64,000 bases of DNA, from IMG/VR virus record IMGVR_UViG_3300003886_000001, positions 1 to 64,000 of that record; one strand, written 5' to 3'. A model generated the notes under the pieces. It was given only the letters and a program-made list of their open reading frames with translations, had not been told where the DNA came from and ran no database searches. Each line of letters starts with the position of its first letter. Within the stretch, counting starts at the first letter, position 1. The stretch comes from a virus. A program made the position numbers and the translations under genes. Shown here one piece after another: positions 9,071-61,379 of this stretch.

Positions 9071-9091
9071 CTCATATGTAAGTAGTATACT
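9071..9091 (+). promoter_or_regulatory. Class II promoter
   Basis: CTCAT-N10-TATACT. Confidence 0.55.
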
Positions 9092-9134
9092 TAGAGAAGA
9101 AAGAAGGGAAAAATGATTTACCATTCAAGGGGGA

Positions 9135-9704
9135 TTGATGACTCACATAATGGTTGATGTTGAGACGCTTGGCACAAAACGTGAATCCGCCCCTGTTATA
9201 TCAATAGCAGCTGTAAAGTTTAATCTAAATAAAGGTATAGTAGAAGATAAAAATGCATTTCATCGTAATATTGACTTAAATGACGCATTAAAGTATGGTG
9301 TAGTAGAGGGGAGCACCCTTAAATGGTGGCAAACGTCAGATAAGCATTCTGTTTTTAAGGATATTATATTTGATTCCCATGCAGTTACCACAAGAAAAAC
9401 ATTAGACGAATTGGAAGAATGGTGCGGGCACTCCATAACACCATGGGCTAAAGGTACAGATTTTGATTTTGTGCTTATAGATAGACTGTATGAACAAACA
9501 GGGTTAAAGAACCCGTTTTCGGTATTTTGGCGCCATCGAGATACAAGGACCTTTGTGGATACAATCCGTAACTTAGGTGTACCTAAATTAGTAATTGAAA
9601 GACGGCAAGGACTAGCCCATAATGCATTGTCAGATGTTATTTACCAAGCAGATGAGCTAATAGCGTATAACCGAGCGGCCTTTGAGCTGCTCAAGGAGGT
9701 TTAA
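9135..9704 (+). CDS. DEDDh 3'-5' exoribonuclease (Rv2179c-like)
   Basis: MVDVETLG, WAKGTDFD, RDTRT, HNALSD. Confidence 0.88.
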   Translation: MMTHIMVDVETLGTKRESAPVISIAAVKFNLNKGIVEDKNAFHRNIDLNDALKYGVVEGSTLKWWQTSDKHSVFKDIIFDSHAVTTRKTLDELEEWCGHSITPWAKGTDFDFVLIDRLYEQTGLKNPFSVFWRHRDTRTFVDTIRNLGVPKLVIERRQGLAHNALSDVIYQADELIAYNRAAFELLKEV

Positions 9705-9706
9705 AG

Positions 9707-10210
9707 ATGTCTATACCAGGAACGAACAGGACGTTAGTAACCGACTGTGCCACGACTCCATCATATACTCAAGATTACACCACTACGGCGAATCTATATT
9801 ATCCTAATACAACGGTACCGGACCAGCAGGCTTTATATTTCCCATTCATCCCATCACCCTTCTTCCCTCAACCATATATTCCCCTTCCTCCTCAACCGTT
9901 ACCTTTACCATATTTTCACCCCTGGTTAACCTATTCGTTACCATGTGCTTGTAAAGGGGATAAAGAGGATGATGAAGATGGTACTACGCTGTCCCTCATC
10001 TTGTTAGGAATTGAAAAAGACAGGATAGCAGTATCGCTTAATGGTAATGAGTTAGAGATTACAGTGGATGGTAAACGCCGTAAAACATTTTCTATCATAG
10101 CTCATTTATATAATATTAAGGATACCAAAGTTAGTTTGCATGAGGGCATCTTAAGGATTCGTCTACCTTTCCTCGTTATTAATAAGGAGTTTGAGATAGA
10201 GAATGACTAA
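9707..10210 (+). CDS. Hsp20-like protein with Pro-rich N-terminus
   Basis: C-terminal alpha-crystallin-like DTKVSLHEGILRIRLP. Confidence 0.65.
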   Translation: MSIPGTNRTLVTDCATTPSYTQDYTTTANLYYPNTTVPDQQALYFPFIPSPFFPQPYIPLPPQPLPLPYFHPWLTYSLPCACKGDKEDDEDGTTLSLILLGIEKDRIAVSLNGNELEITVDGKRRKTFSIIAHLYNIKDTKVSLHEGILRIRLPFLVINKEFEIEND

Positions 10211-10385
10211 AACTCGTGAGATTAGAATTAGACCTTCAAGACCCTACACAACTTAGTTCAAACATTAAGGAATGGAATATTGATGGTGTATTTACCTATG
10301 TCTACAAAATACACTACCTATTGAGTAGTTAACTATATTTGCGTTCTTTCCCCGTGGGGCAAGTAGGCTCATTTAGTTAAGTGGG

Positions 10386-10414
10386 TTGACAAAGAATAGA
10401 TGGGTGGGTATACT
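10386..10414 (+). promoter_or_regulatory. Sigma70-type promoter
   Basis: TTGACA-17-TATACT. Confidence 0.85.
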
Positions 10415-10432
10415 AGTAGTAAGGAGGCTACG

Positions 10433-17526: not shown

Positions 17527-17952
17527 ATGAAAGTAAATTACGACACTCCACAACCTATAGGCGCTGGTGTTAACTCGGTTTTTCCTCGTCTAGAATACCG
17601 TTATAAAGACCGGCTAAAACTAAAGCTGCCGAAGTTAAATGCACTTAGGCAGTTTGGTAGCTATGGTATGATTGAAATTAGCGTGGTTTGGTTCTATCCA
17701 CTGAATCCACCAGGAAAGATATATCAGTCCGTGTTTAATGCTCCGGAAGCATCATATTGGCTTGCCTATTATCAACATGACGGAAATGTAACAGAAGCAC
17801 ACTTCGTGCCCTCTCCAGACCAATTTACTAGTGGGACGTTTAGTATTCCTATATCTCCCCCAGTTATTTCACCAGTTTCTCCGGCAGCGTGGTATATAGA
17901 GGATAAGGAAGCCGGAGCATATGCCTTTGGCAATGATAAACACACGTTCTAA
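17527..17952 (+). CDS. Paralog triad B protein 3
   Basis: GSYGMI...IYQ...APEASYWLAYY. Confidence 0.7.
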   Translation: MKVNYDTPQPIGAGVNSVFPRLEYRYKDRLKLKLPKLNALRQFGSYGMIEISVVWFYPLNPPGKIYQSVFNAPEASYWLAYYQHDGNVTEAHFVPSPDQFTSGTFSIPISPPVISPVSPAAWYIEDKEAGAYAFGNDKHTF

Positions 17953-17957
17953 TCTTT

Positions 17958-17980
17958 CTCATAGACCAAGATGTTATCCT
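17958..17980 (+). promoter_or_regulatory. Class II promoter
   Basis: CTCAT-N12-TATCCT. Confidence 0.7.
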
Positions 17981-22358: not shown

Positions 22359-24278
22359 ATGCCAAAAAAATCAGAGTTTAGAGCCACTTCTACATGGGGA
22401 GACCTACTTAAAAAGAGTGAATATGTAGCTAGGGAAGAGGCTGGAGAAACGTACCGTGTAAAGCCTGTAGATTTAAGAACTTTCGTTCTTAGCCACGACT
22501 ACCTAGGACAAGATATGTGGGGAATATCCCGGGTACAAGAAGATTTTCTTAAAACAGGGTCCGACCTTGAAAATGGTATAAACTTCTTTGTCCTATTTGT
22601 GGGGAAGGGGGGAGGAAAGAATTGGTCATCCGGGGTACTTTTCCTGTACATCGTCTATAAATTACTATGTATGTATGACCCTCATAAGTATCTAAACCAC
22701 AATAGCGCTAAAGCTATCACTTTAATTAACGTAGCAATTAACGAGATGCAAGCTAGGAAAAACTTCTTTAACCCGCTGATTAATATACTTCGCTCGGCTG
22801 GGGATAAAGCCTTTAAGCAGTTTGGATTTGACCCAGAAGCTGATATACAGAAGATGCAGGTAGTTTTCCCCAAAAATATAGAAATTATGTCAGCCAATAG
22901 CAGGGCTGGTGGTATTGAAGGATACGATTTGTTGGTCGCCATGGCGGACGAAGTAGATGATGTGGAGTTCCATAGTGTAGATAAAATTGTTGGGACACTC
23001 CGTACATCTTCTCAGTCAAGATTTCAAGGAAAAGAAAAAGTAGTAGTGATTTCATACCAACGATATGTAGGGTCTTCAGGTAAAATCAATGAGTTTTATG
23101 TAAATGCTGGAAACTTTTCCCATGTGTATGCGAGAAAGTACTCATCATGGGAATTTCACCCTGAAAAGAAAGAGTCTGACTTTGAGACATATTTCAAAGA
23201 AAATCCAGAGATGGCGGCGTGTGTTTATGGTTCCGTTGTTAGCGGTAGTTTTGTAGACTCGTGGATTAAAGAACCGCAAAGAATAAAAAATGCAATGAAT
23301 TGGGGGCGCACTTGGATTTTAGATTGGCCTCTACCGTACGATAGCTACAAAATAGGGTCAGAAGAGTGGAAGTCTCAACTTACACATAAAGAGTGGAGGC
23401 GTTCCCCACTATCAGAACATATCTATACAAAAGGTCACAGAAAACACCAGCTAGACCCATATAATTTACCTATTGCTAAACTAGGTGACCCCAATCAAAT
23501 TTATATATTTTGTGGTGACCCAGCATTAGGGTCAGAGGTAAACGGAGGGGATGGTTATGGGATTGCCTTGGCACATAGGGAAATAGTTAGTGATGACCGT
23601 AATCGTAGATATGTACGACCAATAATTGACCTGGCCTTTAGATTTACCGGAAGAATGTTTGATGAAGGACAGGTGCAGATGGTAGCAGTGGAAAAGTTTA
23701 TAACAAGCTTAAAAGACCTACATGGTTATAATATCAAATACTTTTCTTTTGATGGCTGGAATTCTGCCTCTTTAACCCAGTGGATTACTAAGACCTATCG
23801 AAATGCAGTTGTTCGGGACTTTAATCTGGTAGAAACTAAGGATTATACCGCGTTACGAGACGCTATATTTGGTGAAGTTCCGCCGGCGAACGGTAAAGGT
23901 GAAAAGGAAAGTAATGGAGGTATTGATTTACCGTGGCATCCTATTCTTTACGAGGAACTAAGAGAACTACGAGAGGACAGGAGTAAAAATCCTGCTAAAG
24001 TGGACCACCCTACAGGCGGCGGTAAGGACATTGCTGATGTTGTAGCTAAAGCTGTTTACACATTAACCTATGCGTGGCCATTTACGGATATAATATCTGT
24101 AGGAATTCCAGATAGAGAGGATGAGCTAGCCTCTAAAGTGAGAACTGGTGTTGCAACAGACGATGAGAAGCAAAAGTATATGGAAGAAGTATATTCAGAA
24201 ACTATCGGATTAGGTTCCTGGAAAAAGATGCACGTAAAAGATACTATTAACTTATATGATATCTTTCCAAAGATTTGA
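22359..24278 (+). CDS. terL: Terminase large subunit
   Basis: GKGGGKN, MADEVD, GDPA, FSFDGWNS, DHPTGGGKDIADVV. Confidence 0.88.
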   Translation: MPKKSEFRATSTWGDLLKKSEYVAREEAGETYRVKPVDLRTFVLSHDYLGQDMWGISRVQEDFLKTGSDLENGINFFVLFVGKGGGKNWSSGVLFLYIVYKLLCMYDPHKYLNHNSAKAITLINVAINEMQARKNFFNPLINILRSAGDKAFKQFGFDPEADIQKMQVVFPKNIEIMSANSRAGGIEGYDLLVAMADEVDDVEFHSVDKIVGTLRTSSQSRFQGKEKVVVISYQRYVGSSGKINEFYVNAGNFSHVYARKYSSWEFHPEKKESDFETYFKENPEMAACVYGSVVSGSFVDSWIKEPQRIKNAMNWGRTWILDWPLPYDSYKIGSEEWKSQLTHKEWRRSPLSEHIYTKGHRKHQLDPYNLPIAKLGDPNQIYIFCGDPALGSEVNGGDGYGIALAHREIVSDDRNRRYVRPIIDLAFRFTGRMFDEGQVQMVAVEKFITSLKDLHGYNIKYFSFDGWNSASLTQWITKTYRNAVVRDFNLVETKDYTALRDAIFGEVPPANGKGEKESNGGIDLPWHPILYEELRELREDRSKNPAKVDHPTGGGKDIADVVAKAVYTLTYAWPFTDIISVGIPDREDELASKVRTGVATDDEKQKYMEEVYSETIGLGSWKKMHVKDTINLYDIFPKI

Positions 24279-24882: not shown

Positions 24883-25227
24883 ATGTTACTTGAAGTTGAG
24901 TTCCCTAGAGACGCAGAAGTTAAAGAATCTTCATTTAATTCAAATTATCCTAAAATATTGGTAGATAAAGATGGGAAAGCTAGTGTTTTGGAGTCATCTG
25001 TACCAACTCTATCAAATGGAGAATCCGTAGCTGAGCCATTGGACTCTAAATTTGGAATAAACTACTCATTGTTGACATTTAAGGATACTAAGTCTTCATA
25101 TGTTATTCATTATATAAAATCAGGTCCAGTCATCCCTACACTCCCAATAACTATTACCTCAATTAACGGGGCATTAATAGGAACACTACAAGTATCTACC
25201 GGTGTATCAACGCTACTAATAAATTAA
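24883..25227 (+). CDS. Hypothetical protein, probably virion
   Basis: shares YPKIL N-terminal segment with 28757-29689. Confidence 0.6.
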   Translation: MLLEVEFPRDAEVKESSFNSNYPKILVDKDGKASVLESSVPTLSNGESVAEPLDSKFGINYSLLTFKDTKSSYVIHYIKSGPVIPTLPITITSINGALIGTLQVSTGVSTLLIN

Positions 25228-25239
25228 TGAGGAGATATA

Positions 25240-26445
25240 GTGAGTAATGCTGTTACCATGCACAAAATGGGGCCGAATAAGGAGTATATTCTTATATCGT
25301 CAATGGCTATATTTAGTAATAATCAAAGTGCTGTATTTATAAAACAAAGTGATTTATCCACTAAGTCAGTAACCCTAACCGGCACCGGCTCAGTTCCTAT
25401 GCCTACAGGGGATTCATTCGGGAACTTTATACCAGACGTAGGAGATTATGGACTCGTCGTGTTAAATCCTAGTGGTAGTATCGCTTGGTATGACTACACT
25501 AATGACGCTCTTTTAACTACTCCTGTAGGGAGCCCATATCTAATCAGCAGCGGGAACGACACATGGTATTATTATTCATTTTCTTCTGCCCCCACTCTTG
25601 TTGGTACATTAAATATTCTAAAATTTCCAACAAAGGTAATAATTACTTCCTATGACACAACTGGTGAAATAAATCATGTATTTGAAATACTTCTAACTTC
25701 CTCCTTGTCACTAAATGATATAACCAGTAATTTTACTTTAGCACCAAACTTAAATTTTAATTATCTAAATGATACTTATTTTGTAGAAGCTAGCACTTCC
25801 CATATTGCGTTAGTACAATCTAGTGACTACACACATGTATGGACTATACCATTAACTTCATTTTCATCCTTTAGTTTGGGCGGAGATGACCCTGTTTATA
25901 TATTGAGCGGTGACGGAAAAACTCTATATTTCTTCTATGAGGATGTTAATGGTAACCCCTTCGTTGCTCCAATTGATATAACTACGGGAGTTATAGGTTC
26001 AATTTCTACAGTGCCAGTATCTGCTGCGTATGCGGCTGGAACCATAGGAGTAACTGATAATGGCAGTGATAGACTTCTAGTCTGGCCTGGGGAAGCTGAT
26101 ATATTAGATTTAACTAATGGGGCAATTACCGCCATAGCTTCTCCTAATTTTAATATCAGCGTAAATGCAGACCTAGTGGAAGGATTTGTAGATGGAAATG
26201 GGAGCATGGTCGTATTCTTAGGGGATTCCTCTACCAATAAACTCTATATGAAGATAATACCAAAAGGCTCTACTACAGGAACAGAGTATAATTTAGCAGT
26301 CGGGACTAATGATAGATACGCCGCCTCATTGATGTGGGATGATACTACCCTTTACCTACTATACCCATATGCTTCTACTCAAACTAAGTTATTTGAGTTT
26401 AAGTTAAATCAAGTACCTAATAATATACCAATCACAATACCATAA
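25240..26445 (+). CDS. Beta-rich protein, probably virion/receptor-binding
   Basis: Ser/Thr/Gly-rich, propeller-like pattern. Confidence 0.6.
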   Translation: MSNAVTMHKMGPNKEYILISSMAIFSNNQSAVFIKQSDLSTKSVTLTGTGSVPMPTGDSFGNFIPDVGDYGLVVLNPSGSIAWYDYTNDALLTTPVGSPYLISSGNDTWYYYSFSSAPTLVGTLNILKFPTKVIITSYDTTGEINHVFEILLTSSLSLNDITSNFTLAPNLNFNYLNDTYFVEASTSHIALVQSSDYTHVWTIPLTSFSSFSLGGDDPVYILSGDGKTLYFFYEDVNGNPFVAPIDITTGVIGSISTVPVSAAYAAGTIGVTDNGSDRLLVWPGEADILDLTNGAITAIASPNFNISVNADLVEGFVDGNGSMVVFLGDSSTNKLYMKIIPKGSTTGTEYNLAVGTNDRYAASLMWDDTTLYLLYPYASTQTKLFEFKLNQVPNNIPITIP

Positions 26446-27171: not shown

Positions 27172-27596
27172 TATTCCTCTTTTCTGAATAGTACAACATT
27201 GTTAAGTTTGTCAAGTAGGTTTTCATGTAATTCATAGTTATTATTAAATTGATAAAGATAGTATATCACTCCTTGATTTTTTAGTGCAACTTCTTGTAGA
27301 TATCGTAGGCTACTTTCTACTAGATACTCGTCTTGTTTAGCAGCGTAGTGTAGACGGTCTGGCAGCCCTAAGAATCTTACATTTCCAGAAACAAACGTAG
27401 GAGTCATTATACCATTAGTTATTAACCATCCCCACTGCTTAACTAAATGTGGGTATAGTTTGGCTGCTTCTTTAGTCATCTTATTAACTACTACTAATTT
27501 CCCGTCTTTTCGTACGAAACTAGTAATAGGTAATACCAAAGTGTTCTCTTCACCAGCATAACTAAGGTAAGAGTCCTCTGGAACAACCACTACCAT
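27171..27596 (-). CDS. Macrodomain-like protein (divergent)
   Basis: LVLPITSFVRKDGKLV...AAKLYP resembles phage macro-like family. Confidence 0.45.
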   Translation of the reverse strand: MVVVVPEDSYLSYAGEENTLVLPITSFVRKDGKLVVVNKMTKEAAKLYPHLVKQWGWLITNGIMTPTFVSGNVRFLGLPDRLHYAAKQDEYLVESSLRYLQEVALKNQGVIYYLYQFNNNYELHENLLDKLNNVVLFRKEE

Positions 27597-27946
27597 TATA
27601 CAGAATACCTGTTCAGCCCAAATAAGATATCAGGTTCGACTGCCTTTTCCACTACAGCAGCTACTTTGCCAGCACGGGCGGCTGAAAGATGGGATTGTAA
27701 CCATAGCTTAGTAGAGGGGCGGAAATTATAATGAATATTGTGGTCATAGATTCTTTCTGCGAATGCCGATAGCACATCCTCTAGTGTACGATATTTATTT
27801 TCATTTACAAATATCGTAGTAGGGGTAAAAGATGTTTGTCTTGACCCTATCTCGACTGTAGCGTCAGATATATGACTATACAAGAGAATATCCCGGATAT
27901 GTTTACTTAACTTCTCTGTTTTTGAAGATAATTTTACTAGTATCAT
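27596..27946 (-). CDS. Hypothetical protein
   Basis: RBS AAGGAGA. Confidence 0.6.
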   Translation of the reverse strand: MILVKLSSKTEKLSKHIRDILLYSHISDATVEIGSRQTSFTPTTIFVNENKYRTLEDVLSAFAERIYDHNIHYNFRPSTKLWLQSHLSAARAGKVAAVVEKAVEPDILFGLNRYSV

Positions 27947-32048: not shown

Positions 32049-32068
32049 AAGGCTCCATTCTCATTCTT

Positions 32069-32090
32069 CTCATTCCAAAGTGTCTAGAAT
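32069..32090 (+). promoter_or_regulatory. Class II promoter (leaderless)
   Basis: CTCAT-N11-TAGAAT, ATG 6 nt downstream. Confidence 0.7.
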
Positions 32091-40060: not shown

Positions 40061-40528
40061 ATGTTAATTAGATTTCATAGTTTCACGGACTTAATTACAA
40101 ATTCAAGTTCTACAGTATACATTTATCTCACAGAGAAAACCGAGGAGGTTATTAAGGACTTGGTAAGGCTGCTGCTATCAAGGAATGGTAGCAATGAAAC
40201 CTTTGACTCACTTTTCTCTATTGAGCACCTAACGGGGGAAGGTACTCATGAATACGACTTCTATGAAAACATCTATGATATCGAAAGTATTGATGGAGAT
40301 TGGGAAGCATTAGAGAAGGCTAAAAACGAAGCCGAGGATAAACTCGCCTATCTTAAGAAGTATGCAGAAGAGCATGGACATTCGTCTTTTGAAGATGAAA
40401 ACTATCATGAATATGATTATGCTAGTACCTTAAAAATTACAGCTAAACATCCAAAAGACGCAGCTGCCGCCAAGATATTAAGTTCATTACGTAGTTTATT
40501 TGAATACGAAGCAGTGTTTGATGGTTAG
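40061..40528 (+). CDS. DLITNSSS-motif protein
   Basis: N-terminal HSFTDLITNSSSTVY; acidic core. Confidence 0.7.
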   Translation: MLIRFHSFTDLITNSSSTVYIYLTEKTEEVIKDLVRLLLSRNGSNETFDSLFSIEHLTGEGTHEYDFYENIYDIESIDGDWEALEKAKNEAEDKLAYLKKYAEEHGHSSFEDENYHEYDYASTLKITAKHPKDAAAAKILSSLRSLFEYEAVFDG

Positions 40529-40538
40529 CCTAGAGGGG

Positions 40539-42170: not shown

Positions 42171-44138
42171 GTGATTCCAACTCAGGAAAAGACTGTTACT
42201 AATGAGATTAAAGGTAGCTTGAGAAGCAAGCGTATGACCCTTGACCCTGATAGTATTACTCATATCATGGGTATTCTAACAGACTTATATAGCGACCCAG
42301 CTATGGCGGTTATCCGTGAATACACGTTAAACGCTATTGATTCTCATGCCGCTGCCGGAAAAGGAGATGTTCCTGTTACGATTGGGTTACCAACGGCGTT
42401 TAGTGATACCTTCGTTGTTAAAGACGAAGGTATTGGAATGGACGAGGAAGAGGTATTTAATACCTTTGGCAGCTACGGAGCTTCTACAAAACGAGAAAGT
42501 GATAACTATACGGGGCAGCTAGGGTTAGGGTGTAAGTCTGGCCTAACGTTGACGAACCAATTTTCGCTAGTAGCAATTAAAGATGGTATCAAATGTGCTT
42601 TTTCTGTCCATAAGGACGAATTTGGTGTACCTTGTATTACAAAGTTGTATCAGGGTTTAACAGACGCTCACAATGGCGTAGAGGTCTCAATAGCGATTAA
42701 AGACGTGGAGGAGTTTAAGAAAAGGGCGGCACGATTCTTCCCATTCGTTACCCCTATCCCTGTATTTCTAAACGAGTTTAGCGTACAAACAAAACCTATC
42801 TTGGAAATATCGCCATCTATCAAGATTGTTGATAGTACACAAGACTGTGTAGTAATGGGTAATGTACCTTACCCATTTGTACATGATAAGTTATTTAGGA
42901 CCCTGACGAGGCCCTCTATAGTTTTGTACGCAAAAATGGGAGAAGTAAACTTTACTCCAAGTAGGGAGAGTCTTCACTATACTGCGAAGACAAAGGATTT
43001 CTTGAATCGTAAATACGAAGAATTGGAAGATAAGTTAGCGTCTAAGATATCACAAGACTTAGACTTAGCCGACAACTATGCTGAGGCTTGCAAACTCTGT
43101 AGGGATAAGAAGTACTATGCATTATTGATAGACCTCTCCGCCATGAAAGTACCGATGTTTCATGGAGAGGAAGTCTCCTCTAGTTTGTATGCATTCTCAC
43201 CAATAAAGAGTTATTATTTGGATAACGGTAAGTTGAAATTTAAGCGTAAGGGTACTACATCCTTTTATACAGATAATTTAGGAATAACTGTCTTGATACA
43301 TGACAACCCTTATCTGACTTCAACTAACCGTAGAAAATTGAAGATATTTATGCTTGAGAAGGGGTTAAATGAAGTATATTATATTACCAATAGCCTAGAT
43401 AGCTATTTTAGTCCCATTGTTAGTACACAGATGAAGACTATCACCATAGAGGACTTAAAATATATAAAATTACCGTCACGAAGTGGTAAATGTGAGAGCA
43501 AATGGCCTCGACTTGAAGTGAAGCGTCATACCGCTTGGAGCCGTCAGGTCGAGTTTGTTATGGACACCGAGGCCGAAGTAAAGGCACGAAAAGGTGATAT
43601 TGTATTTCTATCAAGAGGTCCACTAAAAATAAATGCATATACTTTAACCTCTTTGTTCCCTGATACCTATTTTTATGCTGTACCGGCATCTCGCGCACCC
43701 TCATTTAGGCATCTCTCCCCCCGTGCCCGCTCTATTAACGAATTTTTGCTCAACCAGTTGATAAAAATTGAAAACTCTATGACAGATGCTCAGAAACTAC
43801 GTGTAGCCGGTATACCAAGCCAAGCCTTAATTAAGTTATCTCCAAATATCTTGTCTAGTGACCAAATACAAGATAAACAGTTGAGGGCGTTTGGGCAGAA
43901 GATAGTAGCAGTCGATGAGGCTGTCATAAAAATTCATAACGAGCCTTGGTCGACATTTAGAAGAATATGCACCACCTCTGGTCTTGCAGAACTGGTTATG
44001 GATATAGGTCAGGATATTAGAGAGTCTTTTATTAAGGAATCCGACGCTTTAGCTAAAAAGTATCCGCTACTGTTTGTTTCTCAAGACCGCACATTCACCC
44101 AATCCTATATAGACTATGTAAATGAAAGGAATTTATGA
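42171..44138 (+). CDS. rIIA: RIIA-like protein (GHKL ATPase N-terminus)
   Basis: LYSDP..AVIREY..NAIDSH, DEGIGM, GQLGLGCKS. Confidence 0.85.
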   Translation: MIPTQEKTVTNEIKGSLRSKRMTLDPDSITHIMGILTDLYSDPAMAVIREYTLNAIDSHAAAGKGDVPVTIGLPTAFSDTFVVKDEGIGMDEEEVFNTFGSYGASTKRESDNYTGQLGLGCKSGLTLTNQFSLVAIKDGIKCAFSVHKDEFGVPCITKLYQGLTDAHNGVEVSIAIKDVEEFKKRAARFFPFVTPIPVFLNEFSVQTKPILEISPSIKIVDSTQDCVVMGNVPYPFVHDKLFRTLTRPSIVLYAKMGEVNFTPSRESLHYTAKTKDFLNRKYEELEDKLASKISQDLDLADNYAEACKLCRDKKYYALLIDLSAMKVPMFHGEEVSSSLYAFSPIKSYYLDNGKLKFKRKGTTSFYTDNLGITVLIHDNPYLTSTNRRKLKIFMLEKGLNEVYYITNSLDSYFSPIVSTQMKTITIEDLKYIKLPSRSGKCESKWPRLEVKRHTAWSRQVEFVMDTEAEVKARKGDIVFLSRGPLKINAYTLTSLFPDTYFYAVPASRAPSFRHLSPRARSINEFLLNQLIKIENSMTDAQKLRVAGIPSQALIKLSPNILSSDQIQDKQLRAFGQKIVAVDEAVIKIHNEPWSTFRRICTTSGLAELVMDIGQDIRESFIKESDALAKKYPLLFVSQDRTFTQSYIDYVNERNL

Positions 44139-45217
44139 ATGTATCTTTTAATATTACTCATTCGGACACGGATGGTATACAAATAATAGTGTATATTGAT
44201 GGTACCGCGTACGTTGCCAGTGAGTCACATCTGTTGTTTAAGGATATTTTGAAAGCCTGTCGAGAGCTTGACTTTGAAAATCTGGCTCAGTTATTTGACG
44301 TAAAGGGGGTCCTTACCGAAACATTATCACAACTTAGCGAACGTGTAAGAATTAGTGAGACTACGCTATATTTTGATGGTGAGCCTATGTTTGGTAAATT
44401 AACTACTATTCTTGTGAATACGTATAGAGATGGAAGGGATTTTGTCCCGCTGCTTAACTTTTTAGAAAACCTTATGAATAATCCCAGTAGAGGCAGTAGA
44501 GAACAGCTGTATGGATTTCTAGAACACCACCATTTTTCAATTACATCTGATGGGCACTTTTTAGCCTATAAGGGAGTAAATAGCGATAGGCATTCTCTTC
44601 ATAACGGGTATGGTATCGTGGACGGAGTAATAACACATGGAACCTTACCAAATAAAGACGGTTCTATTATTGAAATGGGAAGGGACAGAGTCGTAGAAGA
44701 CCCTAACCAGGGATGTACAGTAGGACTCCATGTAGGCACCTATTTATATGCCAGTAGTTACGGATACGTGACCGTGCTGGTCAAGGTTAATCCACGAGAT
44801 GTAGTGTCAGTACCTATTGATTCAGACTATCAGAAGCTGAGAGTTACCAGATATAAAGTTTTACATGAGGTATCCGAAGAAGTACCTGATGATTATTATG
44901 AGGATACTATGCTAATTCCAGATGATGAGTATGATGATGCTGAGTTAATACCGGAGCTATCAGACGATAGAGTAGACGACTTATTAGTGGATATGGCTGT
45001 TTCAACGCTAGAAGAAGAAGCTTCAAACTATACTTATAAGGGACGTATGGCTGGTTCATACAAGCAGCTAGCGGAAAGATTAGGATTTAGTAGGGATGTA
45101 GCCGAGTATCTAGATAACTCTCATTCTGCTAATGCAGTTTACCGGTATCATGTAGATAGGTTAAGGGATGCCTATTTATCAGAAGGTGATGGTGATGAGG
45201 AAAATAACCCAACATGA
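44135..45217 (+). CDS. rIIB: RIIB-like protein
   Basis: DGHFLAYKGV, CTVGLHVG, VKVNPRDVVSVP. Confidence 0.85.
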   Translation: MNVSFNITHSDTDGIQIIVYIDGTAYVASESHLLFKDILKACRELDFENLAQLFDVKGVLTETLSQLSERVRISETTLYFDGEPMFGKLTTILVNTYRDGRDFVPLLNFLENLMNNPSRGSREQLYGFLEHHHFSITSDGHFLAYKGVNSDRHSLHNGYGIVDGVITHGTLPNKDGSIIEMGRDRVVEDPNQGCTVGLHVGTYLYASSYGYVTVLVKVNPRDVVSVPIDSDYQKLRVTRYKVLHEVSEEVPDDYYEDTMLIPDDEYDDAELIPELSDDRVDDLLVDMAVSTLEEEASNYTYKGRMAGSYKQLAERLGFSRDVAEYLDNSHSANAVYRYHVDRLRDAYLSEGDGDEENNPT

Positions 45218-45560
45218 ATTGCGGAGTGTTGAGTTAATTTTAGACAAGATTCGTACTGTCATTGATTTGGAGTATTTCTATGATGATGAGCAGAACATCT
45301 TAGCCATTGGGGATAACTACATTATGCGTGGTGGCACTATCACACAGTATAATGGGGCTGTAGAACAAGACATCTTCCGTCTAATATACGGAGAAGACCA
45401 TCCAGGAGACGACCATTTTGACTTTTCTCGTTGGGAGGAGGAGGACGTGGCGTCCGCAAACGCGGTAGAGCCGTTGTTACCGATATTTCTTGCCAATCTA
45501 TTCCAACGATGGGGAGAAGAGCTTATTTATTCAAAGTTCAAATTGGGGCTGAAAGGATAA
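45168..45560 (+). CDS. Hypothetical protein
   Basis: ORF; start uncertain. Confidence 0.55.
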   Translation: MPIYQKVMVMRKITQHELRSVELILDKIRTVIDLEYFYDDEQNILAIGDNYIMRGGTITQYNGAVEQDIFRLIYGEDHPGDDHFDFSRWEEEDVASANAVEPLLPIFLANLFQRWGEELIYSKFKLGLKG

Positions 45561-46276: not shown

Positions 46277-46550
46277 GGATGCTCTAGAAGAGGTAAAGGT
46301 AATTAGTCGTGTTATTTTTTCTAATGGAAAGGGGGAGACCATCGTATTAGAAACAGAACATGGGCTAGAAGAGATAAGACAGCAATTATACATTATTAGC
46401 GCTAAAAAGACCCTACATGCAAAGTTCAGGGGAGCAGACGCATTTAACAAACTACATTATGAGTTTACATGGAATGTCGAAGACCGAGACTTAGATGACA
46501 TGATTAAAGAGTTTTTAGGAGCCGGCTGGGTTATTAGAAATGAGGAATAA
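46266..46550 (+). CDS. Hypothetical protein
   Basis: RBS GAGGT. Confidence 0.6.
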   Translation: MLDEDALEEVKVISRVIFSNGKGETIVLETEHGLEEIRQQLYIISAKKTLHAKFRGADAFNKLHYEFTWNVEDRDLDDMIKEFLGAGWVIRNEE

Positions 46551-47274: not shown

Positions 47275-47505
47275 ATGAGTCAAACAGAAGACCTTCACGA
47301 GGTTGTAAACGCGCTCCGCGAGGAGATGATTAAGCTTAAGAAGGGCGCTTATGCGTTAAGCCTGTTAGCACTAACGTACGATTCTCTTAGACAACGTGAT
47401 AATGCTGCTAGCACTCGACATGCTCATCGGTTACTATCCTTAGCTAGTGAAGCACTTTTCGCCGCCCAAGAGCATTTTAACGACATATCTAGTAGAGAGG
47501 ATTAA
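47275..47505 (+). CDS. Helical hypothetical protein
   Basis: leaderless ORF. Confidence 0.6.
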   Translation: MSQTEDLHEVVNALREEMIKLKKGAYALSLLALTYDSLRQRDNAASTRHAHRLLSLASEALFAAQEHFNDISSRED

Positions 47506-49327: not shown

Positions 49328-49339
49328 ATTTTAATCTTC

Positions 49340-49362
49340 CTCATGATTGTACGAGCTACAAT
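49340..49362 (+). promoter_or_regulatory. Class II promoter
   Basis: CTCAT-N12-TACAAT just before tRNA-Asn. Confidence 0.65.
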
Positions 49363-49366
49363 GTAT

Positions 49367-49441
49367 TCTAGGATGGTGAAAGGGTATCACGGCAGACTGT
49401 TAATCTGTCAGTTGTAGGTTCGAATCCTACTCCTAGAGCCA
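49367..49441 (+). tRNA. tRNA-Asn(GTT)
   Basis: cloverleaf, CCA. Confidence 0.93.
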
Positions 49442-49586: not shown

Positions 49587-49661
49587 GCTCCCGTGGCCGA
49601 ACGGTTAGGCATCCGACTTTTAATCGGTACAGCGTAGGTTCGACTCCTACCGGGGGCACCA
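49587..49661 (+). tRNA. tRNA-Lys(TTT)
   Basis: cloverleaf, CCA. Confidence 0.92.
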
Positions 49662-51085: not shown

Positions 51086-51310
51086 ATGGATAACCTTATA
51101 TTTACTGTAGACGAATTGGTTACTCACCTCATGAGCCTTAAAGGTAGAGGTATAATAACTGGCAAAGAACCCGTGTTGGATACTGGTTATTTTGGAATTA
51201 CGCACGTGGTCCGTCATATAGATGGAGAGGTTCCGGTCGTTACTTTAGAAAGTGATGAATTAAACGTAGCAGCCATAAAATCCGCCCCACAAAAAATGAC
51301 TTCACTTTAA
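51086..51310 (+). CDS. Hypothetical protein
   Basis: RBS AAGGGA. Confidence 0.6.
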   Translation: MDNLIFTVDELVTHLMSLKGRGIITGKEPVLDTGYFGITHVVRHIDGEVPVVTLESDELNVAAIKSAPQKMTSL

Positions 51311-52248
51311 TGGTTTGGAAAGTGTTTAAATCACGAATCAAGCTTTTTCCTCATCCTAATGCTGAAAGACTAGTTATTGGGAAGGTGGGAAAGTACCAGG
51401 TAGTAACACTTAAGGGACTTTATGTAGATTGTGAGGATGTTGTTTTTGTCCCAGCTAAATCTGTTCTTCCGGACGAATTAGCTAATGACTATAGGGAATA
51501 CTTAGGTGGTCCTGAAAAAAACCGTGTACGTGAAGTCTCCCTTCGGGGAGAAGTTTCCATGGGGATGGTTTTCAAGGTTGATGAAGTAACTAAAAACCTT
51601 CCCTATAAGGAAGATATAAGCGAGTTACTTGGTATTTATAAATACGAGCCCTCTATTCCAGTTAGTTTGTCTGGGGACGTACTCAAAATACCGAAGGGTA
51701 CCTTCTCACAGCATGACGTAGAAAGGTATAATAACGATTTTCGGGGCGATGAGGAAGTTTCCGTTACAGAGAAAATCCATGGTAGTCAAGTAATTTTAGG
51801 AAGGTCCAAGGAAGGGGAAATATTTGTAACCTCAAAAGGGTTGATGTCCCGTGGGCTGTCCTTAGTCGAGTCTGATAGAAATACCTATTGGAGGGCTGCC
51901 AGGAAATGGCTAGACGCAATCTCATATTTCTCACCTAGACATGATGTACAGTTTATTGGAGAGGTTGTTCCCGTACAGAAAGGATTTTCATATGGGTTTG
52001 ATACACCTACTATACTATTCTTTGATGTACGGGTTGATGGAGAAGGTGCAGCTAGGCATACTGGACTTTTATGGGTTCCCAGCATCTATAATGGACCTTT
52101 TTCCGGGGCTCCGCTAAACCCAAGTGGAAATGAGCAGGTGAGTGGAAAAGAAGTACATATAAAGGAAGGAATCGTAATAAAAGGAGAGAACGCAATAGTA
52201 AAAATTCTTAACAAGAAGTATAAAGAAACCGGAGAAGAGATAAGTTGA
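51310..52248 (+). CDS. RNA ligase, DRB0094-like (N-terminal OB fold)
   Basis: HPNAERL, LRGEVSMG, TEKIHGS, FIGEVV, EGIVIK. Confidence 0.9.
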   Translation: MVWKVFKSRIKLFPHPNAERLVIGKVGKYQVVTLKGLYVDCEDVVFVPAKSVLPDELANDYREYLGGPEKNRVREVSLRGEVSMGMVFKVDEVTKNLPYKEDISELLGIYKYEPSIPVSLSGDVLKIPKGTFSQHDVERYNNDFRGDEEVSVTEKIHGSQVILGRSKEGEIFVTSKGLMSRGLSLVESDRNTYWRAARKWLDAISYFSPRHDVQFIGEVVPVQKGFSYGFDTPTILFFDVRVDGEGAARHTGLLWVPSIYNGPFSGAPLNPSGNEQVSGKEVHIKEGIVIKGENAIVKILNKKYKETGEEIS

Positions 52249-56392: not shown

Positions 56393-57154
56393 TCAGTGAG
56401 TAAACACTACTTTGGCGTCTGGTCCACGATGCAACCGCCAAGTTGAGCCATCAAATGAAGGTAAGTACCCTGCAAGCCACAAGGTGCGTAGACTAGCCCA
56501 TGGATTGGGTCGGCTAATCCCTTTCCAAGATGCTATACTTGGGAAGAGACTGCCTATGTAACCTGTTGCGCCTATGGAATCATCTCTTATTGAATCCCCG
56601 ACCGAATTCCGTACCGCACCCACCACTGAGTCACCAATTGGATACCACACCGAGTTCCATACCGAACCCCATACCGAACTCCACATTGAGTTTCGTATTG
56701 TATGTAGCACCGATTCCCACACTGGGACCTCTGATAAATCCCACACGGTTGCCACCCAGTCTGCGAGTAGGGTGTGCAACCTGTCCTTTGGCAACTCTGG
56801 TCCATTTACAAACAGGGGATTGATAGGATGGTTAGCTTCATACAGCCAAAACTTAGCCAACCTGTTCTGCTCCTCAGCGCTGATAATGCTAACCGGTAGA
56901 CACTCACTAACACGTGTTGATGTTTCATCCGCAGTAATGATGTGTTGTGGTTGTACCTCAACTTGTAGGTACTCACTTGAGCTACCCTGATACCGAACAG
57001 CATTCCAGAAGGTATGAGCTACATGTAAACCTGTTCCGCAAGTGCCTTTTTCGGGTGGGTCGGGATTAGCGACATGTAGTGGTTTACCTATCTCCCACTG
57101 TGTTTTCTTATCGTAGTAGCTAGTCATATCAAGTGTCACAGCTTTGTAATACAC
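56393..57154 (-). CDS. Phage protein with SVW-type tetrapeptide repeats
   Basis: CGTGLH; SMWSSVWGSVWNSVW. Confidence 0.7.
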   Translation of the reverse strand: MYYKAVTLDMTSYYDKKTQWEIGKPLHVANPDPPEKGTCGTGLHVAHTFWNAVRYQGSSSEYLQVEVQPQHIITADETSTRVSECLPVSIISAEEQNRLAKFWLYEANHPINPLFVNGPELPKDRLHTLLADWVATVWDLSEVPVWESVLHTIRNSMWSSVWGSVWNSVWYPIGDSVVGAVRNSVGDSIRDDSIGATGYIGSLFPSIASWKGISRPNPWASLRTLWLAGYLPSFDGSTWRLHRGPDAKVVFTH

Positions 57155-57480
57155 GATTTACTTCTCCTTTGTATTTCATTTTTCCATGAAAGGGCGTGAA
57201 CTTCGCCGACTCCCCAAAGAACTACTACGGTATGGTTTTCAATACCATCGGTATACTCCTTCTCTATAATCCTGTCCTCAGTAATACAGGTGGTCTCAGT
57301 TTCACCGTTTCCCCACCAGATATTGATGGGGCCTTTCCCGTATAGGTACAAACTAATACCTGTTAGTTCATTAGCGAATACCGACCATAATGAGTCCTTG
57401 TTATAGTTCTTTTCAAGCCACAATACCAACCCCTCATCCCCAGCTACTTCAAGGTCTTCCAGAGCGTCTTTAATGGTCAT
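57136..57480 (-). CDS. Hypothetical protein (leaderless)
   Basis: CTTAG-N12-TACTAT 5 nt before ATG. Confidence 0.6.
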   Translation of the reverse strand: MTIKDALEDLEVAGDEGLVLWLEKNYNKDSLWSVFANELTGISLYLYGKGPINIWWGNGETETTCITEDRIIEKEYTDGIENHTVVVLWGVGEVHALSWKNEIQRRSKSCITKL

Positions 57481-57503
57481 GACCTATAGTAACAAAGTCA
57501 TAT

Positions 57504-57683
57504 CTAAGAAGTATGATAGAAGAGGACAATTCCCGCTATGGCTATAAGGATGGTAAGGATAGCTGCCTCCCCCAGGATTAAGAAGGAGGAATTAATCGCC
57601 GACAAAACGAGCAACACCACAATAGCGATAAATAAAACAGCTGAAATACCAAGGGCTAGTAGCTTAATTAGGTCGACTAACAT
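57504..57683 (-). CDS. 59-aa membrane protein
   Basis: MLVDLIKLLAL...; RBS GGAGG. Confidence 0.6.
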   Translation of the reverse strand: MLVDLIKLLALGISAVLFIAIVVLLVLSAINSSFLILGEAAILTILIAIAGIVLFYHTS

Positions 57684-57701: not shown

Positions 57702-57724
57702 ATTATATTACCATCATACATGAG
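57702..57724 (-). promoter_or_regulatory. Class II promoter
   Basis: CTCAT-N12-TATAAT. Confidence 0.7.
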
Positions 57725-57744
57725 AAACATGAGTTCTCATACTT

Positions 57745-57767
57745 CTCATTAAAGTATGGGGTATCCT
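57745..57767 (+). promoter_or_regulatory. Class II promoter (divergent from 57702-57724)
   Basis: CTCAT-N12-TATCCT. Confidence 0.7.
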
Positions 57768-57896: not shown

Positions 57897-58196
57897 ATGC
57901 CTTGGATAATAAAAGTACCGTTTCTTGTCCCTACGTGGGCTGCTGCCCAGACTTGGGGACCAATTATTTTGGTAAATAATAGGTATGCACTTACCACTAA
58001 AACCTTAGCACATGAATTGAGACACTATGTCCAGAGCATGTGGTTTGGTTTTATCCTGTGGCCCGCAGCTTACCTAGTTGCCTGGGCTATCGGGGGGTTT
58101 TCTTATCGCAATAATTGGTTCGAGAAGGATGCTAGAAACCATTCTGTTGACCCCCGTTATGTTAAGTGGGCTCAAAACACCAAATATCCTGTATGA
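57897..58196 (+). CDS. Small zincin-like HExxH protein
   Basis: AQTWG..I, AHELRH, NWFEKDA. Confidence 0.75.
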   Translation: MPWIIKVPFLVPTWAAAQTWGPIILVNNRYALTTKTLAHELRHYVQSMWFGFILWPAAYLVAWAIGGFSYRNNWFEKDARNHSVDPRYVKWAQNTKYPV

Positions 58197-58618: not shown

Positions 58619-58877
58619 GCCTAATCATCTCCGGAGAGTAACTGAGCCCGGCTAATTTGACTCCCTCTTGCTCAATCTCTTTTGTGGGGCCATGATGTTC
58701 CTGTAGGAATCCCATAACATTGTTAGGACGACACGCGGCTAGTGCCTCTTCAACCGTTTCGAAGTCCCCTAAGAATGTAGCATGAGTACCAGCTATTACC
58801 CTAACCTTGATGCTGGTACCCATGACTTCTCCTTCAAGACTCAGTTCCTGCAAGAGGAAGGGGGAAACCTCAACCAC
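58611..58877 (-). CDS. Hypothetical protein
   Basis: coupled ORF. Confidence 0.55.
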   Translation of the reverse strand: MVEVSPFLLQELSLEGEVMGTSIKVRVIAGTHATFLGDFETVEEALAACRPNNVMGFLQEHHGPTKEIEQEGVKLAGLSYSPEMIRHA

Positions 58878-59232
58878 TCCACCCTACCTTTACGAGGTTA
58901 GCTACGGGCTGCGGAAGAATTTCTCCGAAGTAGTTCACGTGAGCCTTTTCTCCTTCAACGTCGACCACCTGTACGGGAGTAGCGTACTGGATGGCATGTG
59001 CCCGGTTCTTGTAGACGTCAAGCGGGCGAACTACCGTGTCACCGGCGACAATAGGGCCATCAACTGCGACCAGCACCTTTTCCTTTTCCTTCCGGGGACG
59101 ACCTACCGGACGCTTGGGGGCGTTTCGGCAAGTTGGGCACTTCAGCGGAGGCCGGCCACGACCAAGCTGTACATGCTCAAATTCGGAACCACATTCGGTA
59201 CAAACCTTGGTAACTGCCTTAGTGTTTTCCAT
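58870..59232 (-). CDS. Zn-ribbon + AT-hook + SH3-like DNA-binding protein (leaderless)
   Basis: CTEC...RGRPP..CPTC..KRPVGRPRK. Confidence 0.7.
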   Translation of the reverse strand: MENTKAVTKVCTECGSEFEHVQLGRGRPPLKCPTCRNAPKRPVGRPRKEKEKVLVAVDGPIVAGDTVVRPLDVYKNRAHAIQYATPVQVVDVEGEKAHVNYFGEILPQPVANLVKVGWSG

Positions 59233-59238
59233 GTCTTT

Positions 59239-59261
59239 ATATTACCTCGTCTCTTTATGAG
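59239..59261 (-). promoter_or_regulatory. Class II promoter (leaderless)
   Basis: CTCAT-N12-TAATAT, ATG 6 nt downstream. Confidence 0.75.
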
Positions 59262-59448
59262 AAGGATGACCAAATATGGTCAAAACCTTGTCAAACTGGC
59301 AATGCTCCTCCATTTCCTTTACCTCTAGTCTAGTAGGGCTTTCATAGATGGCTAATTGCTTGCCCGGCCGGGAAGGGACCAGGTAAATCACAAAGTCCCA
59401 TTCTGGGTCAGATACTTTAGTAACAAGTTGTGGTTGTCCGTATGTCAT
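59242..59448 (-). CDS. Hypothetical protein
   Basis: coupled to helicase stop. Confidence 0.55.
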   Translation of the reverse strand: MTYGQPQLVTKVSDPEWDFVIYLVPSRPGKQLAIYESPTRLEVKEMEEHCQFDKVLTIFGHPSHKETR

Positions 59449-61352
59449 TCTTCCAACTGCCTTCGGTATTTGTGGACAAGGTGCTGTCCTATGATTGCCT
59501 GCTTAGAAGTCAAAAACGGGGCTTCGGCCAAAGAATGTCCAATGTTAGAGTCTACCATACTAAATCCCATCCCATTCCTTTCGGTAGCCCTGTCAGAATC
59601 TAACAGCGCTAGCTGCTGTAGCTTAGCGTGAATGATGCTAATTTCGTCCTCCTCCATGTACTCTGCGGTTTCTTCTATCTCTCGATAGGTGGGGTAATCG
59701 TCGTCATTAAGCTGATATTCGGCATCAAGCGCCTTATCAATAACCCTTTGTTTCCCGATAACGGTCTGGGCCATAAGGGCATCGAGACTGCCTTCCAATA
59801 CCAAGTGCTGTACCAAGACGGCATCATCTTGTCCAATACGGTGGCACCTGTCTTCTGCCTGGCTAATGTTTCCAGGCACCCAGTCTAACTCTGCAAACAC
59901 TACGTGGGAGGCTGCCGTTAGCGTAATTCCTACCCCGGCCGCCTGTATGTTCCCGAGGAAGTATTGCACGCTAGGGTCATTCTGGAACCTGCTTACGGCA
60001 ATTTCCCGGTCTTCCATCTTAGTGTCTCCGGTCAAGACAACGGCTGCCTCTCCCAGGTCTTCTTTAAGGGCGTAGATGACATCTTTATGGTGGGCGAACA
60101 CAACCACCTTATGGTCGATATTGTGGAGATGTTCCAACACGTACGGTATTTTAGCTACCGCCGTATCATGACGAAGCGCGGATAACTCACTAAAGTATAC
60201 CGCAAAGTCGTGCCGGAGTTCAGAAACCGCATGGGCATATTCCTCAGGACTGCCCGCTTTAGCCAACTCCACGTTAGCCTTCAAGGTCTCTTGCTTTTCC
60301 CACGCCTCTGCTTCTGCCTTTACCAGATAGCGTGCATCACCTTCGGGTGGAATTTCAATAATCTGTCGCCGCTTTGCTGGCAATTCTGTTAGTACGTCTT
60401 CCTTTAAACGCCTAATCATTAAACTACTCCGCAGCCGGTCCTGCAATTCTTCAAGGTTGCTTGACCCATTAAAGTCCCAACCGTAACCATTATTTGTAGC
60501 GCCGCAGTAGCGCTGGGCGTAGGTCCAGTAGGAAGGCCATTCCTTGGAGTCCAGGGAATGGAGTACCGGATATAGTTCAATAGGGCGATTAGTAATTGGC
60601 GTCCCTGTCAGGTAAATGCGTTTGTTGGCTTGAATGCCATTAATGGCAGCTTTACCTGTCTTTGTTTTTTTGGCCCCAAAGATGTACTTTGTCCGTTGGG
60701 CAGTCTGGTGCTTGAGGTAATGCACCTCATCAATAATGAGGATATCCCACACCTGACTAGTTAGGACCTCGTGGTGTTTTCTAACCACGTCGTAGTTAAT
60801 AATGACTATGTCCACATTCTCGGGATACTTACTGCGGTTGACAACACCGATTGTGTAAGGGAGAACGAGCCACTTTTCTAGTTCTTTACGCCAATTGAGA
60901 CGCAAAGAGGCTGGACAGATAATCAGAACTTTCTGCTTTTCAGAGGAATTAATAACCCCTATAGTTTCAATGGTTTTGCCCAGCCCCATTTCATCGCCCA
61001 ACAAGGTACCGGTCTTATTTAATGCAAATGCAATCCCGGCCTTTTGGTAAGGTAGGTATTCCAGGCCTTTCGGAGAGTCTACCGAAAGGTTAGCATCAGT
61101 AGCGCGAGAAAGCTCTCGATTAGCCTCTCGTTGCTCTAAAACTTCCGTCGGAACCTTCCCCCAGTGGCAGATGGTCCATTCCCCGTCATTCTCGCGAACA
61201 ACAGAATAGCCATCCTTTTTCAGATTAGCCTTGTCTTTCTTCCACAAGGCCCAGAACTCTTGCGTTGTATGGGCTTTGCGAAGAATACGTTCCCCATATT
61301 TAGTGCGGACAGTTCTGGGCTCGGTCCAGTTAAGTTGGTCTAGAACTTCCAT
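59445..61352 (-). CDS. SNF2-family (SMARCAL1/HARP-like) helicase
   Basis: GDEMGLGKT, DEVH, LTGTP, AAGVGITL, QAEDRCHRIGQ. Confidence 0.93.
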   Translation of the reverse strand: MEVLDQLNWTEPRTVRTKYGERILRKAHTTQEFWALWKKDKANLKKDGYSVVRENDGEWTICHWGKVPTEVLEQREANRELSRATDANLSVDSPKGLEYLPYQKAGIAFALNKTGTLLGDEMGLGKTIETIGVINSSEKQKVLIICPASLRLNWRKELEKWLVLPYTIGVVNRSKYPENVDIVIINYDVVRKHHEVLTSQVWDILIIDEVHYLKHQTAQRTKYIFGAKKTKTGKAAINGIQANKRIYLTGTPITNRPIELYPVLHSLDSKEWPSYWTYAQRYCGATNNGYGWDFNGSSNLEELQDRLRSSLMIRRLKEDVLTELPAKRRQIIEIPPEGDARYLVKAEAEAWEKQETLKANVELAKAGSPEEYAHAVSELRHDFAVYFSELSALRHDTAVAKIPYVLEHLHNIDHKVVVFAHHKDVIYALKEDLGEAAVVLTGDTKMEDREIAVSRFQNDPSVQYFLGNIQAAGVGITLTAASHVVFAELDWVPGNISQAEDRCHRIGQDDAVLVQHLVLEGSLDALMAQTVIGKQRVIDKALDAEYQLNDDDYPTYREIEETAEYMEEDEISIIHAKLQQLALLDSDRATERNGMGFSMVDSNIGHSLAEAPFLTSKQAIIGQHLVHKYRRQLEE

Positions 61353-61358
61353 ATCTAA

Positions 61359-61379
61359 ATCCTAGCATAACTACATGAG
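61359..61379 (-). promoter_or_regulatory. Class II promoter (leaderless)
   Basis: CTCAT-N10-TAGGAT with TGn, ATG 6 nt downstream. Confidence 0.65.

Follow-up and report, generated by a model that had tools for sequence, protein, structure and literature searches.

The virus record IMGVR_UViG_3300003886_000001 of the IMG/VR database raises the question of what reads a set of promoters in which a host-type -10 hexamer, TAnnnT, is preceded by a CTCAT box and not by TTGACA. A preliminary description of the first 64,000 nucleotides of this record (the window) had proposed that 15 sites of the form CTCAT-N(10-12)-TAnnnT make up a second promoter class, bound by a phage activator or an alternative sigma factor. 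Analysing the source contig, a virus contig of 119,665 bp that we call G000, we find that CTCAT belongs to a longer, bipartite element, tCT(C/A)AT-nn-TTCTCAT-N12-TAnnnT, consisting of two direct TCTCAT repeats with a period of 9 bp followed by the -10. The reading we prefer, to which we would give a probability of roughly 0.55, is that of a lineage-specific promoter class in which the -10 would be read by the polymerase of the host carrying its primary sigma factor, while a sequence-specific factor, most likely encoded by the phage, would bind the tandem boxes.

No nucleotide match to G000 was found among deposited phages. By protein, its nearest named relatives are the Thermus phages phiYS40, the closest of all, and TMA (portal protein 46% identity, DNA polymerase A 36%). 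The relative used most here is G001, an IMG/VR contig of 202 kb that is 97% complete; its portal is 76% identical to that of G000 and the two are mostly syntenic, with about 64 kb of G001 having no counterpart in G000. A third metagenomic contig, L146, is 61 kb long, of which 18 kb are readable. To score sites we iterated a two-block matrix, covering the boxes and the -10, over the whole of G000; scores are given in bits, with cut-offs of at least 14 or at least 20 bits. Coordinates labelled L001 are G000 coordinates minus 64,000 (L001 17430-17950, for example, is G000 81430-81950).

The loose pattern is itself enriched in the window, with 33 copies against 11.5 +/- 2.9 in shuffled sequence; all 15 coordinates of the preliminary description are among its matches, and 11 of them have the 12-nt spacer that was said to prevail. 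When these 15 sites are aligned on CTCAT, two further features emerge for which that description had not selected, namely T-C-T-(C/A)-A-T at positions -10 to -5 and TT at -2 and -1 relative to the C of CTCAT. In G000 the matrix finds 48 sites that reach 14 bits, 34 of which also reach 20; beyond the window most of them lie at 64-92 kb, upstream of small minus-strand genes. A held-out matrix, trained on the 11 previously described window sites with a 12-nt spacer and controlled with 200 dinucleotide-preserving shuffles, finds 12 matches of at least 14 bits in the unseen 64-119.6 kb, against 0.24 in the shuffles (maximum 2). The geometry is fixed to the base: outside a non-coding array described below, words of the form TTCTCA(T/C) have a TAnnnT exactly 12 nt downstream in 24 of 65 cases in G000 and 34 of 114 in G001, a single spike over a background of about 2 per offset. 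The upstream box appears even in 67 sites picked by the proximal box and the -10 alone, with A at 92%, T at 85%, T at 73% and C at 70%. Relative to the predicted start the proximal box occupies about -31 to -25, which agrees with the earlier placement of the box near -27, and the distal box about -39 to -34.

The sites are also placed as promoters should be. We counted a start as leaderless where an ATG 5-6 nt past the hexamer opens an open reading frame (ORF) of at least 35 codons, and as Shine-Dalgarno-led where a start with a Shine-Dalgarno sequence lies 14-45 nt downstream. Such a well-placed start codon is present at 26 of the 34 sites that reach 20 bits, half of them (13) leaderless and half (13) Shine-Dalgarno-led; one or the other follows 5.5% of all TAnnnT in G000, giving a binomial P of about 2e-26 for 26 of 34. 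In G001 an ATG stands at 5-6 nt in 20 of 51 sites, compared with about 1% of all TAnnnT. A start 6 nt past TAnnnT and leaderless mRNAs are known for Thermus phages and for Deinococcota (bioRxiv 10.64898/2026.04.20.719267; PMC12340547; PMC3594737). The Deinococcota-type layout, in which TAnnnT lies 5-7 nt before the start codon and a Shine-Dalgarno sequence is lacking, is found at 13 of the 34 top sites of G000, and leaderless mRNAs are predicted from these 13.

The class is conserved between G000 and G001. The latter carries 30 exact copies of TTCTCAT-N12-TAnnnT, against none for a reversed control, and 71 matrix matches that score 18 bits or more and show the leaderless layout seen in G000. 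Of 23 G000 sites that stand before a gene with an ortholog in G001, 20 have a counterpart before that ortholog, and in 10 ortholog pairs aligned without gaps on CTCAT the columns of both boxes are identical in 8-10 of 10 pairs and those at the TA of the -10 in 8-9 of 10, with about 3 of 10 elsewhere. Back-to-back divergent pairs, in which the upstream boxes interdigitate and about 20 bp separate the CTCAT cores, are likewise kept in both genomes (window 57702-57767; G000 66155-66220, with sites at 66176 and 66196; G001 46300-46370 and others). In phiYS40 there is no exact TCTCAT-N12-TAnnnT site and one marginal matrix match, the leaderless promoters of that phage being TTGACA-17-TAnnnT or a -10 alone. 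A pattern scan of IMG/VR returned mostly single chance matches.

Could chance or base composition, such as ATGAG at gene starts on the opposite strand, account for the pattern? About half of the 33 loose matches do fall on the minus strand within genes of the plus strand, about as often as expected by chance. For the extended motif, however, the held-out test, the spacing spike, the start-codon placement and the ortholog conservation are all contrary to such an origin, which they already refute and to which we attach practically no probability.

With the extended matrix the membership of the class can be redrawn. Of the 15 sites originally listed, 13 are members (17.7-29.7 bits), as are the two single-base variants, CTCAC at 35395 (24.8 bits) and CTAAT at 27994 (23.5 bits), the second of which is on the minus strand. 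The remaining two, 10785 (+) and 61379 (-), score below 0 and thus fit the loose pattern only; they are probably chance matches or -10-only promoters. Four window sites had been missed: 31186 (-), 45129 (+), 51930 (+) and 57508 (-), as had the bipartite nature of the motif, the frequent leaderless mRNAs and the non-coding array. The window sites and the two non-members are as follows.

9061-9091 (+): weak member with a spacer of 10, upstream of the Rv2179c-like exoribonuclease gene 9135-9704 (Pfam); 17.7 bits, G001 ortholog site 23.8 bits
10785-10807 (+): non-member; box score -5.9
17948-17980 (+): TCTAAT-ct-TTCTCAT-N12-TATCCT before the clamp-loader/GMP-reductase operon (18000-; Pfam); 28.6 bits, G001 ortholog site 26.4 bits
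27972-28004 (-): CTAAT variant with N12-TATAAT, 116-aa gene 27596-27946; 23.5 bits, ortholog site 22.1 bits
31165-31196 (-): CTAAT variant with a spacer of 11, upstream of 30764-31123; 19.4 bits, Shine-Dalgarno-led ATG 41 nt downstream
32059-32090 (+): TCTCAT-tc-TTCTCAT-N11-TAGAAT before the leaderless 77-aa gene 32097-32330; 27.8 bits, ATG 6 nt past the -10
35385-35417 (+): CTCAC variant, ATP-dependent DNA ligase gene 35444-36529 (Pfam); 24.8 bits, ortholog site 20.8 bits
37406-37438 (+): RtcB gene 37459-38733 (Pfam); 25.6 bits, ortholog site 20.9 bits
40007-40039 (+): TCTCAT-ca-TTCTCAT-N12-TACTCT before a 155-aa gene and the radical SAM gene (40061-41429; Pfam); 28.5 bits
42117-42149 (+): rIIA/rIIB (42171-45217; rIIA by tblastn); 21.4 bits, ortholog site 28.6 bits
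45119-45151 (+): CTAAT variant within the 3' end of rIIB, upstream of 45195-45560; 17.2 bits, G001 ortholog site 24.3 bits
47236-47268 (+): TCTAAT-ac-TTCTCAT-N12-TAAGAT before the leaderless 76-aa gene 47275-47505; 26.8 bits, ATG 6 nt past the -10
49330-49362 (+): promoter abutting tRNA-Asn (49367-49441); 23.0 bits
49520-49551 (+): promoter upstream of tRNA-Lys(ttt) 49587-49661; 24.3 bits
51033-51065 (+): 74-aa gene and RNA ligase gene (51086-52248; Pfam); 25.2 bits, ortholog site 28.0 bits
51920-51952 (+): copy of the motif within the RNA ligase gene, with the second tRNA cluster 330 nt further on, of uncertain function; 24.5 bits, no well-placed ORF
57486-57518 (-): weak CTTAG variant, leaderless 114-aa gene 57136-57480; 17.4 bits, ATG 5 nt past the -10
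57702-57767 (both strands): divergent pair, 57724 (-) towards 57504-57683 and 57745 (+) towards a first ORF 130 nt downstream (57897-58196); 24.6 and 29.7 bits, like layout at 66176/66196 and in G001
59239-59271 (-): leaderless 120-aa gene 58870-59232 with a zinc ribbon and a GRP-rich stretch (Pfam); 25.4 bits, ATG 6 nt past the -10
61359-61379 (-): non-member, a TAGGAT -10 and leaderless ATG before an SNF2 helicase gene (Pfam), without TCTCAT boxes; box score -11.2

The genes behind the window sites thus encode an exoribonuclease, the clamp loader, GMP reductase, DNA ligase, RtcB, a radical SAM protein, rIIA, rIIB, RNA ligase, two tRNAs and several small ORFs. Of the genes that the preliminary description had placed behind the motif, the clamp loader, DNA ligase, RtcB, radical SAM, rIIA and tRNA genes are indeed preceded by it, and the helicase, whose site is the non-member at 61379, drops out. 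Gene content of this kind and the parallel with phage T4 lead us to infer a 'middle' timing of expression.

Several observations on individual promoters belong here. G000 has 32 tRNA genes at 49-55.5 kb, where three tRNA clusters each stand behind a TTGACA-17-TAnnnT promoter (window 48929, 52245 and 55265, all +). At 52245, at 55265 and at the TCTCAT-class site 49340 (+), the predicted start falls within about 2 nt of the mature 5' end of the tRNA, so that hardly any 5' leader would be left on the tRNA precursors. Orthologous genes can differ behind like promoters: the gene served by window site 59261 (-) is leaderless and its counterpart at G001 47460 (+) is Shine-Dalgarno-led. Two strong TCTCAT promoters at G000 73736 (-) and 74155 (-) (L001 9736 and 10155) share the start region TATAGTatagctacctagg and lack an ORF over more than 100 nt downstream; long structured leaders or small RNAs may be their products, and Rfam gave no match in 64-84 kb, these start regions included. 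Structural genes at 92-119 kb of G000 (e.g. upstream of 104993, 113988 and 110516) and their G001 orthologs are preceded by gTATAAT with neither a -35 nor a TCTCAT box, which may represent a third, late promoter class.

What, then, reads the -10 of the TCTCAT class? A TTGACA -35 at 17 +/- 1 bp from the -10 is absent from these sites and found at a separate set of promoters, in keeping with the claim of a separate class that has a host-type -10 but no TTGACA; the ordinary TTGACA-17-TAnnnT promoters reported to coexist with it are present at 10386, 16702, about 20490, 46707, 48929, 52245 and 55265 (+) and at 63645 (-). The flanks of the -10 are alike in both classes of the same genomes, with T at -17 and a G-rich stretch from -16 to -13, so the same sigma subunit probably reads both. 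The TCTCAT sites also lack the conserved TG of an extended -10, as in the middle and late promoters of P23-45 (T at -15 in 31%, G at -14 in 43%). The hexamer itself is weaker than in the TTGACA class, third-position T being present in 40% against 63% and fourth-position A in 41% against 68%, and such a weaker -10 would fit a need for an activator.

The idea of an alternative sigma factor does not hold up well against these data. A strongly diverged phage sigma, for which TTCTCAT is a -35-like element and TAnnnT the -10, would account for a bipartite motif with fixed spacing, and phage sigma factors can escape profile searches. Against this, sigma region 2 (Sigma70_r2, PF04542) is absent from G000, G001 and phiYS40, and region 4 (PF04545) gives only weak matches, in HNH/DUF723 homing-endonuclease-like proteins, none of them convincing in G000 or G001. 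In its -10 and flanking bases the class agrees with the TTGACA promoters, and arrays of boxes without a -10 would not be expected. The spacer of 12-13 bp is, moreover, much below the 16-18 bp spanned by sigma regions 2 and 4: from holoenzyme geometry, a 12-bp spacer puts the box at -31 to -25, too close for region 4, which weakens any model built on sigma only. We consider a phage sigma improbable.

The known systems with the most similar layout are activated by DNA-binding proteins. Middle promoters of T4, to which the preliminary description had aptly compared the class, carry a box centred near -30 in place of the -35, separated by 12 +/- 1 bp from the host's TAnnnT -10; about 60 such promoters serve replication, nucleotide-metabolism and tRNA genes (PMC2988021). 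Our promoters agree with these in the position of the box at -31 to -25, in a spacer that peaks at exactly 12, in number (about 40-70 promoters) and in the kinds of genes served. They differ in the box itself, TTCTCAT as two direct repeats compared with a single (a/t)(a/t)(a/t)TGCTTtA; in that MotA binds one box as a monomer, while here there is a second, upstream repeat; and in the lack of a MotA C-terminal domain or AsiA, the many leaderless transcripts and the non-coding array. The second parallel is the pho box of Escherichia coli, where two direct repeats stand in for the -35, with about 10-12 bp left between them and the -10, and where the reader, PhoB, contacts sigma region 4. Tandem direct repeats in place of the -35 are common to pho boxes and the TCTCAT sites, but the period is 9 bp here and 11 in the pho box, the OmpR-type Trans_reg_C domain (PF00486) is absent from G000 and G001, and a phage developmental programme takes the place of a phosphate response. 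The layout shared with T4 middle promoters and pho boxes favours a class II-type activator on two tandem boxes.

On the preferred reading, host RNA polymerase would be guided to these weak -10 elements by a factor that occupies the tandem boxes, 12 bp upstream, in place of a -35 and contacts the polymerase. Acting like MotA, or like PhoB at the pho box, it would switch on about 40 promoters in G000 and about 70 in G001, and the class would drive replication, nucleotide-metabolism, RNA-repair, rII, tRNA and many small genes, about 40% of the transcripts starting at the A of the ATG. We infer activation as the direction of control. The opposite direction would make the boxes operators, at which a repressor shuts off -10-only promoters that are active by themselves in Deinococcota; a -10 alone can work as a promoter in Deinococcus (PMC12340547), and the boxes cover the region that polymerase would occupy. 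It is rare for operators, however, to hold the distance to the -10 constant to the base at about 100 promoters of diverged genomes, and a -10 weaker than that of the TTGACA class suggests a need for help, which makes repression a poor prospect in our judgement.

The boxes also occur where no promoter is seen. The non-coding region G000 81430-81950 (L001 17430-17950) holds 20 copies of (T/C)CT(C/A)A(T/C), 17 of them in one orientation, at spacings of 8-11, 20, 31 and 42 bp, that is, multiples of about one helical turn (~10.5 bp), and these copies are almost never followed by a -10. At the syntenic position of G001 (33660-34440) stands an equivalent array, phased in the same way and likewise mostly lacking -10 hexamers, with about 32 copies spread over some 800 bp next to a block of T-rich repeats. 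In G000 the array is adjoined by A-rich direct repeats, CTATAAAAACCCCAAATTTAAAAATAAATAAA, with a spacing of 61 bp (81990-82210; L001 17990-18210), at the same place as the T-rich block of G001. That the boxes recur without a promoter argues for a protein that binds TCTCAT by itself, not only within polymerase. Phased repeats beside A/T-rich DNA look origin-like, and the array may act as an origin of replication, as a sink or as a site of assembly. No initiator gene was found for an origin at the array, and DnaA boxes in the two arrays are at chance level, the only perfect one being in G001.

A bolder version of this reading is that sigma appropriation was invented a second time: a protein unlike MotA, AsiA, sigma, OmpR or helix-turn-helix proteins would bind the boxes, take over the -35 contact and assemble on the array as an origin or control hub. 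We regard this as speculative and rather unlikely; if it were true, genome replication would be coupled to the transcription programme through the array-binding protein.

The search of the rest of the genome for a sigma factor or activator, a course the preliminary description had recommended, yielded no candidate that could be assigned. The MotA C-terminal domain (MotCF, PF09158) has no match at E <= 1 in G000 or G001, a result that does not extend to the MotA activation domain PF09114, which was not searched for; AsiA (PF09010) and WhiB are not found in either genome. Scans of individual proteins against Pfam and of selected proteins against PHROGs gave no DNA-binding domain among the families listed. 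Conserved proteins examined behind TTGACA promoters are poor candidates. Those considered and set aside include a 165-aa gene adjoining the array (80888-81385), whose DUF6011 family occurs widely in unrelated phages but not in G001; a 113-aa early gene with homologs in many contigs that lack the motif; a 270-aa early gene that looks like a nucleotidyltransferase or a left-handed beta-helix protein; a 149-aa early gene that is YpsA/SLOG-like; the region 4-like matches of G001, which are homing-endonuclease-like proteins; and a 639-aa protein without matches, which reads as a large terminase by its Walker motifs and lacks a DxDGD motif. The 120-aa product of 58870-59232, with its zinc ribbon and GRP-rich stretch, is conserved and a possible DNA binder, but its own gene lies behind a TCTCAT promoter.

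Some of the proteins encountered in this search are of interest in their own right. The 639-aa ORF (window 22359-24278), which has Walker A and B motifs and no Pfam or PHROG match, has a G001 ortholog of 1039 aa (103941-107060) with two intein-like inserts, and the ribonucleotide reductase is 859 aa long in the window (4722-7301) against 1171 aa at G001 123273-126788. A stand-alone cREC receiver-like protein (PF20274) is encoded at G000 75788-76129 (-) and G001 25059-25400 (-), in a phage that also has RtcB and two RNA-ligase-family genes.

Several points weigh against a phage-encoded activator. No DNA- or polymerase-binding protein could be assigned, with no helix-turn-helix family among the best 25 of 44 Pfam families for 145 proteins or among all 15 for 96 small proteins, and the conserved early proteins examined resemble other things (YpsA/SLOG, nucleotidyltransferase-like, a possible RNase). 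G000 is only ~72% complete. All transcript starts are predicted from sequence. Kinship with phiYS40 and the leaderless mRNA style together suggest a host among the Deinococcota; the origin of some related contigs in other environments speaks against such an assignment, and a ribonucleotide reductase query against genome contigs gave only a Planctomicrobium match, at 23% identity. Finally, L146 carries 9 sites in its readable 18 kb and yet has one detectable gene in common with G000 over that length, which would also fit a factor supplied by the host.

In that case a host-encoded protein, perhaps an activator of the response-regulator kind that recognises direct repeats, would read the boxes, and several unrelated phages would exploit it. 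The lack of a phage DNA-binding candidate and the resemblance of tandem repeats replacing the -35 to pho boxes point the same way as L146. On the other hand, just 18 of the 61 kb of L146 are readable, so further common genes are possible; an array of 20-30 copies kept in two phages is more easily explained by a phage protein; and phiYS40 is without the motif. Weighing these, we find a host factor unlikely, though not implausible, and continue to prefer a factor encoded by the phage. The factor could have a new fold, could be encoded in the missing 28% of G000 (though G001 is nearly complete), or could be a host protein after all.

How does the class compare with what is known of the closest named phages? 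In phiYS40, P23-45 and Lalka27a the host polymerase is used at TAnnnT, transcription starts 6 nt downstream and mRNAs are mostly leaderless, with class signatures ascribed to phage factors (bioRxiv 10.64898/2026.04.20.719267; PMC3594737; PMC3351154). The promoters described here share the TAnnnT -10, the start ~6 nt downstream and the leaderless mRNAs. They differ from phiYS40 in having the exact TCTCAT-N12-TAnnnT site at all, from P23-45, which has an extended -10, and from the late promoters of Lalka, which have TAGGGT and a C at -25. Judged on the sequence features compared, the class is outside the MotA/AsiA, PhoB and phage-sigma families. The preliminary description had not recognised the motif from any described phage, and our full-text literature search likewise found no description of it, the Thermus phage literature consulted giving other signatures. 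A phage-specific class with a box replacing the -35 is of a kind already known; the TCTCAT motif itself appears to be new.

Phage promoter classes have led to new modes of polymerase reprogramming before, as with MotA/AsiA of T4 and gp39 of P23-45. For this lineage the motif can serve as an annotation tool for operon starts, for the correct start codons of leaderless genes and for tRNA transcription units. The DNA side of the switch is clearly defined, by about 100 promoters in two genomes, a geometry fixed to a single base and a conserved array. Its protein side is invisible to current profile libraries, which turns the motif into a concrete search for a new polymerase-redirecting factor.

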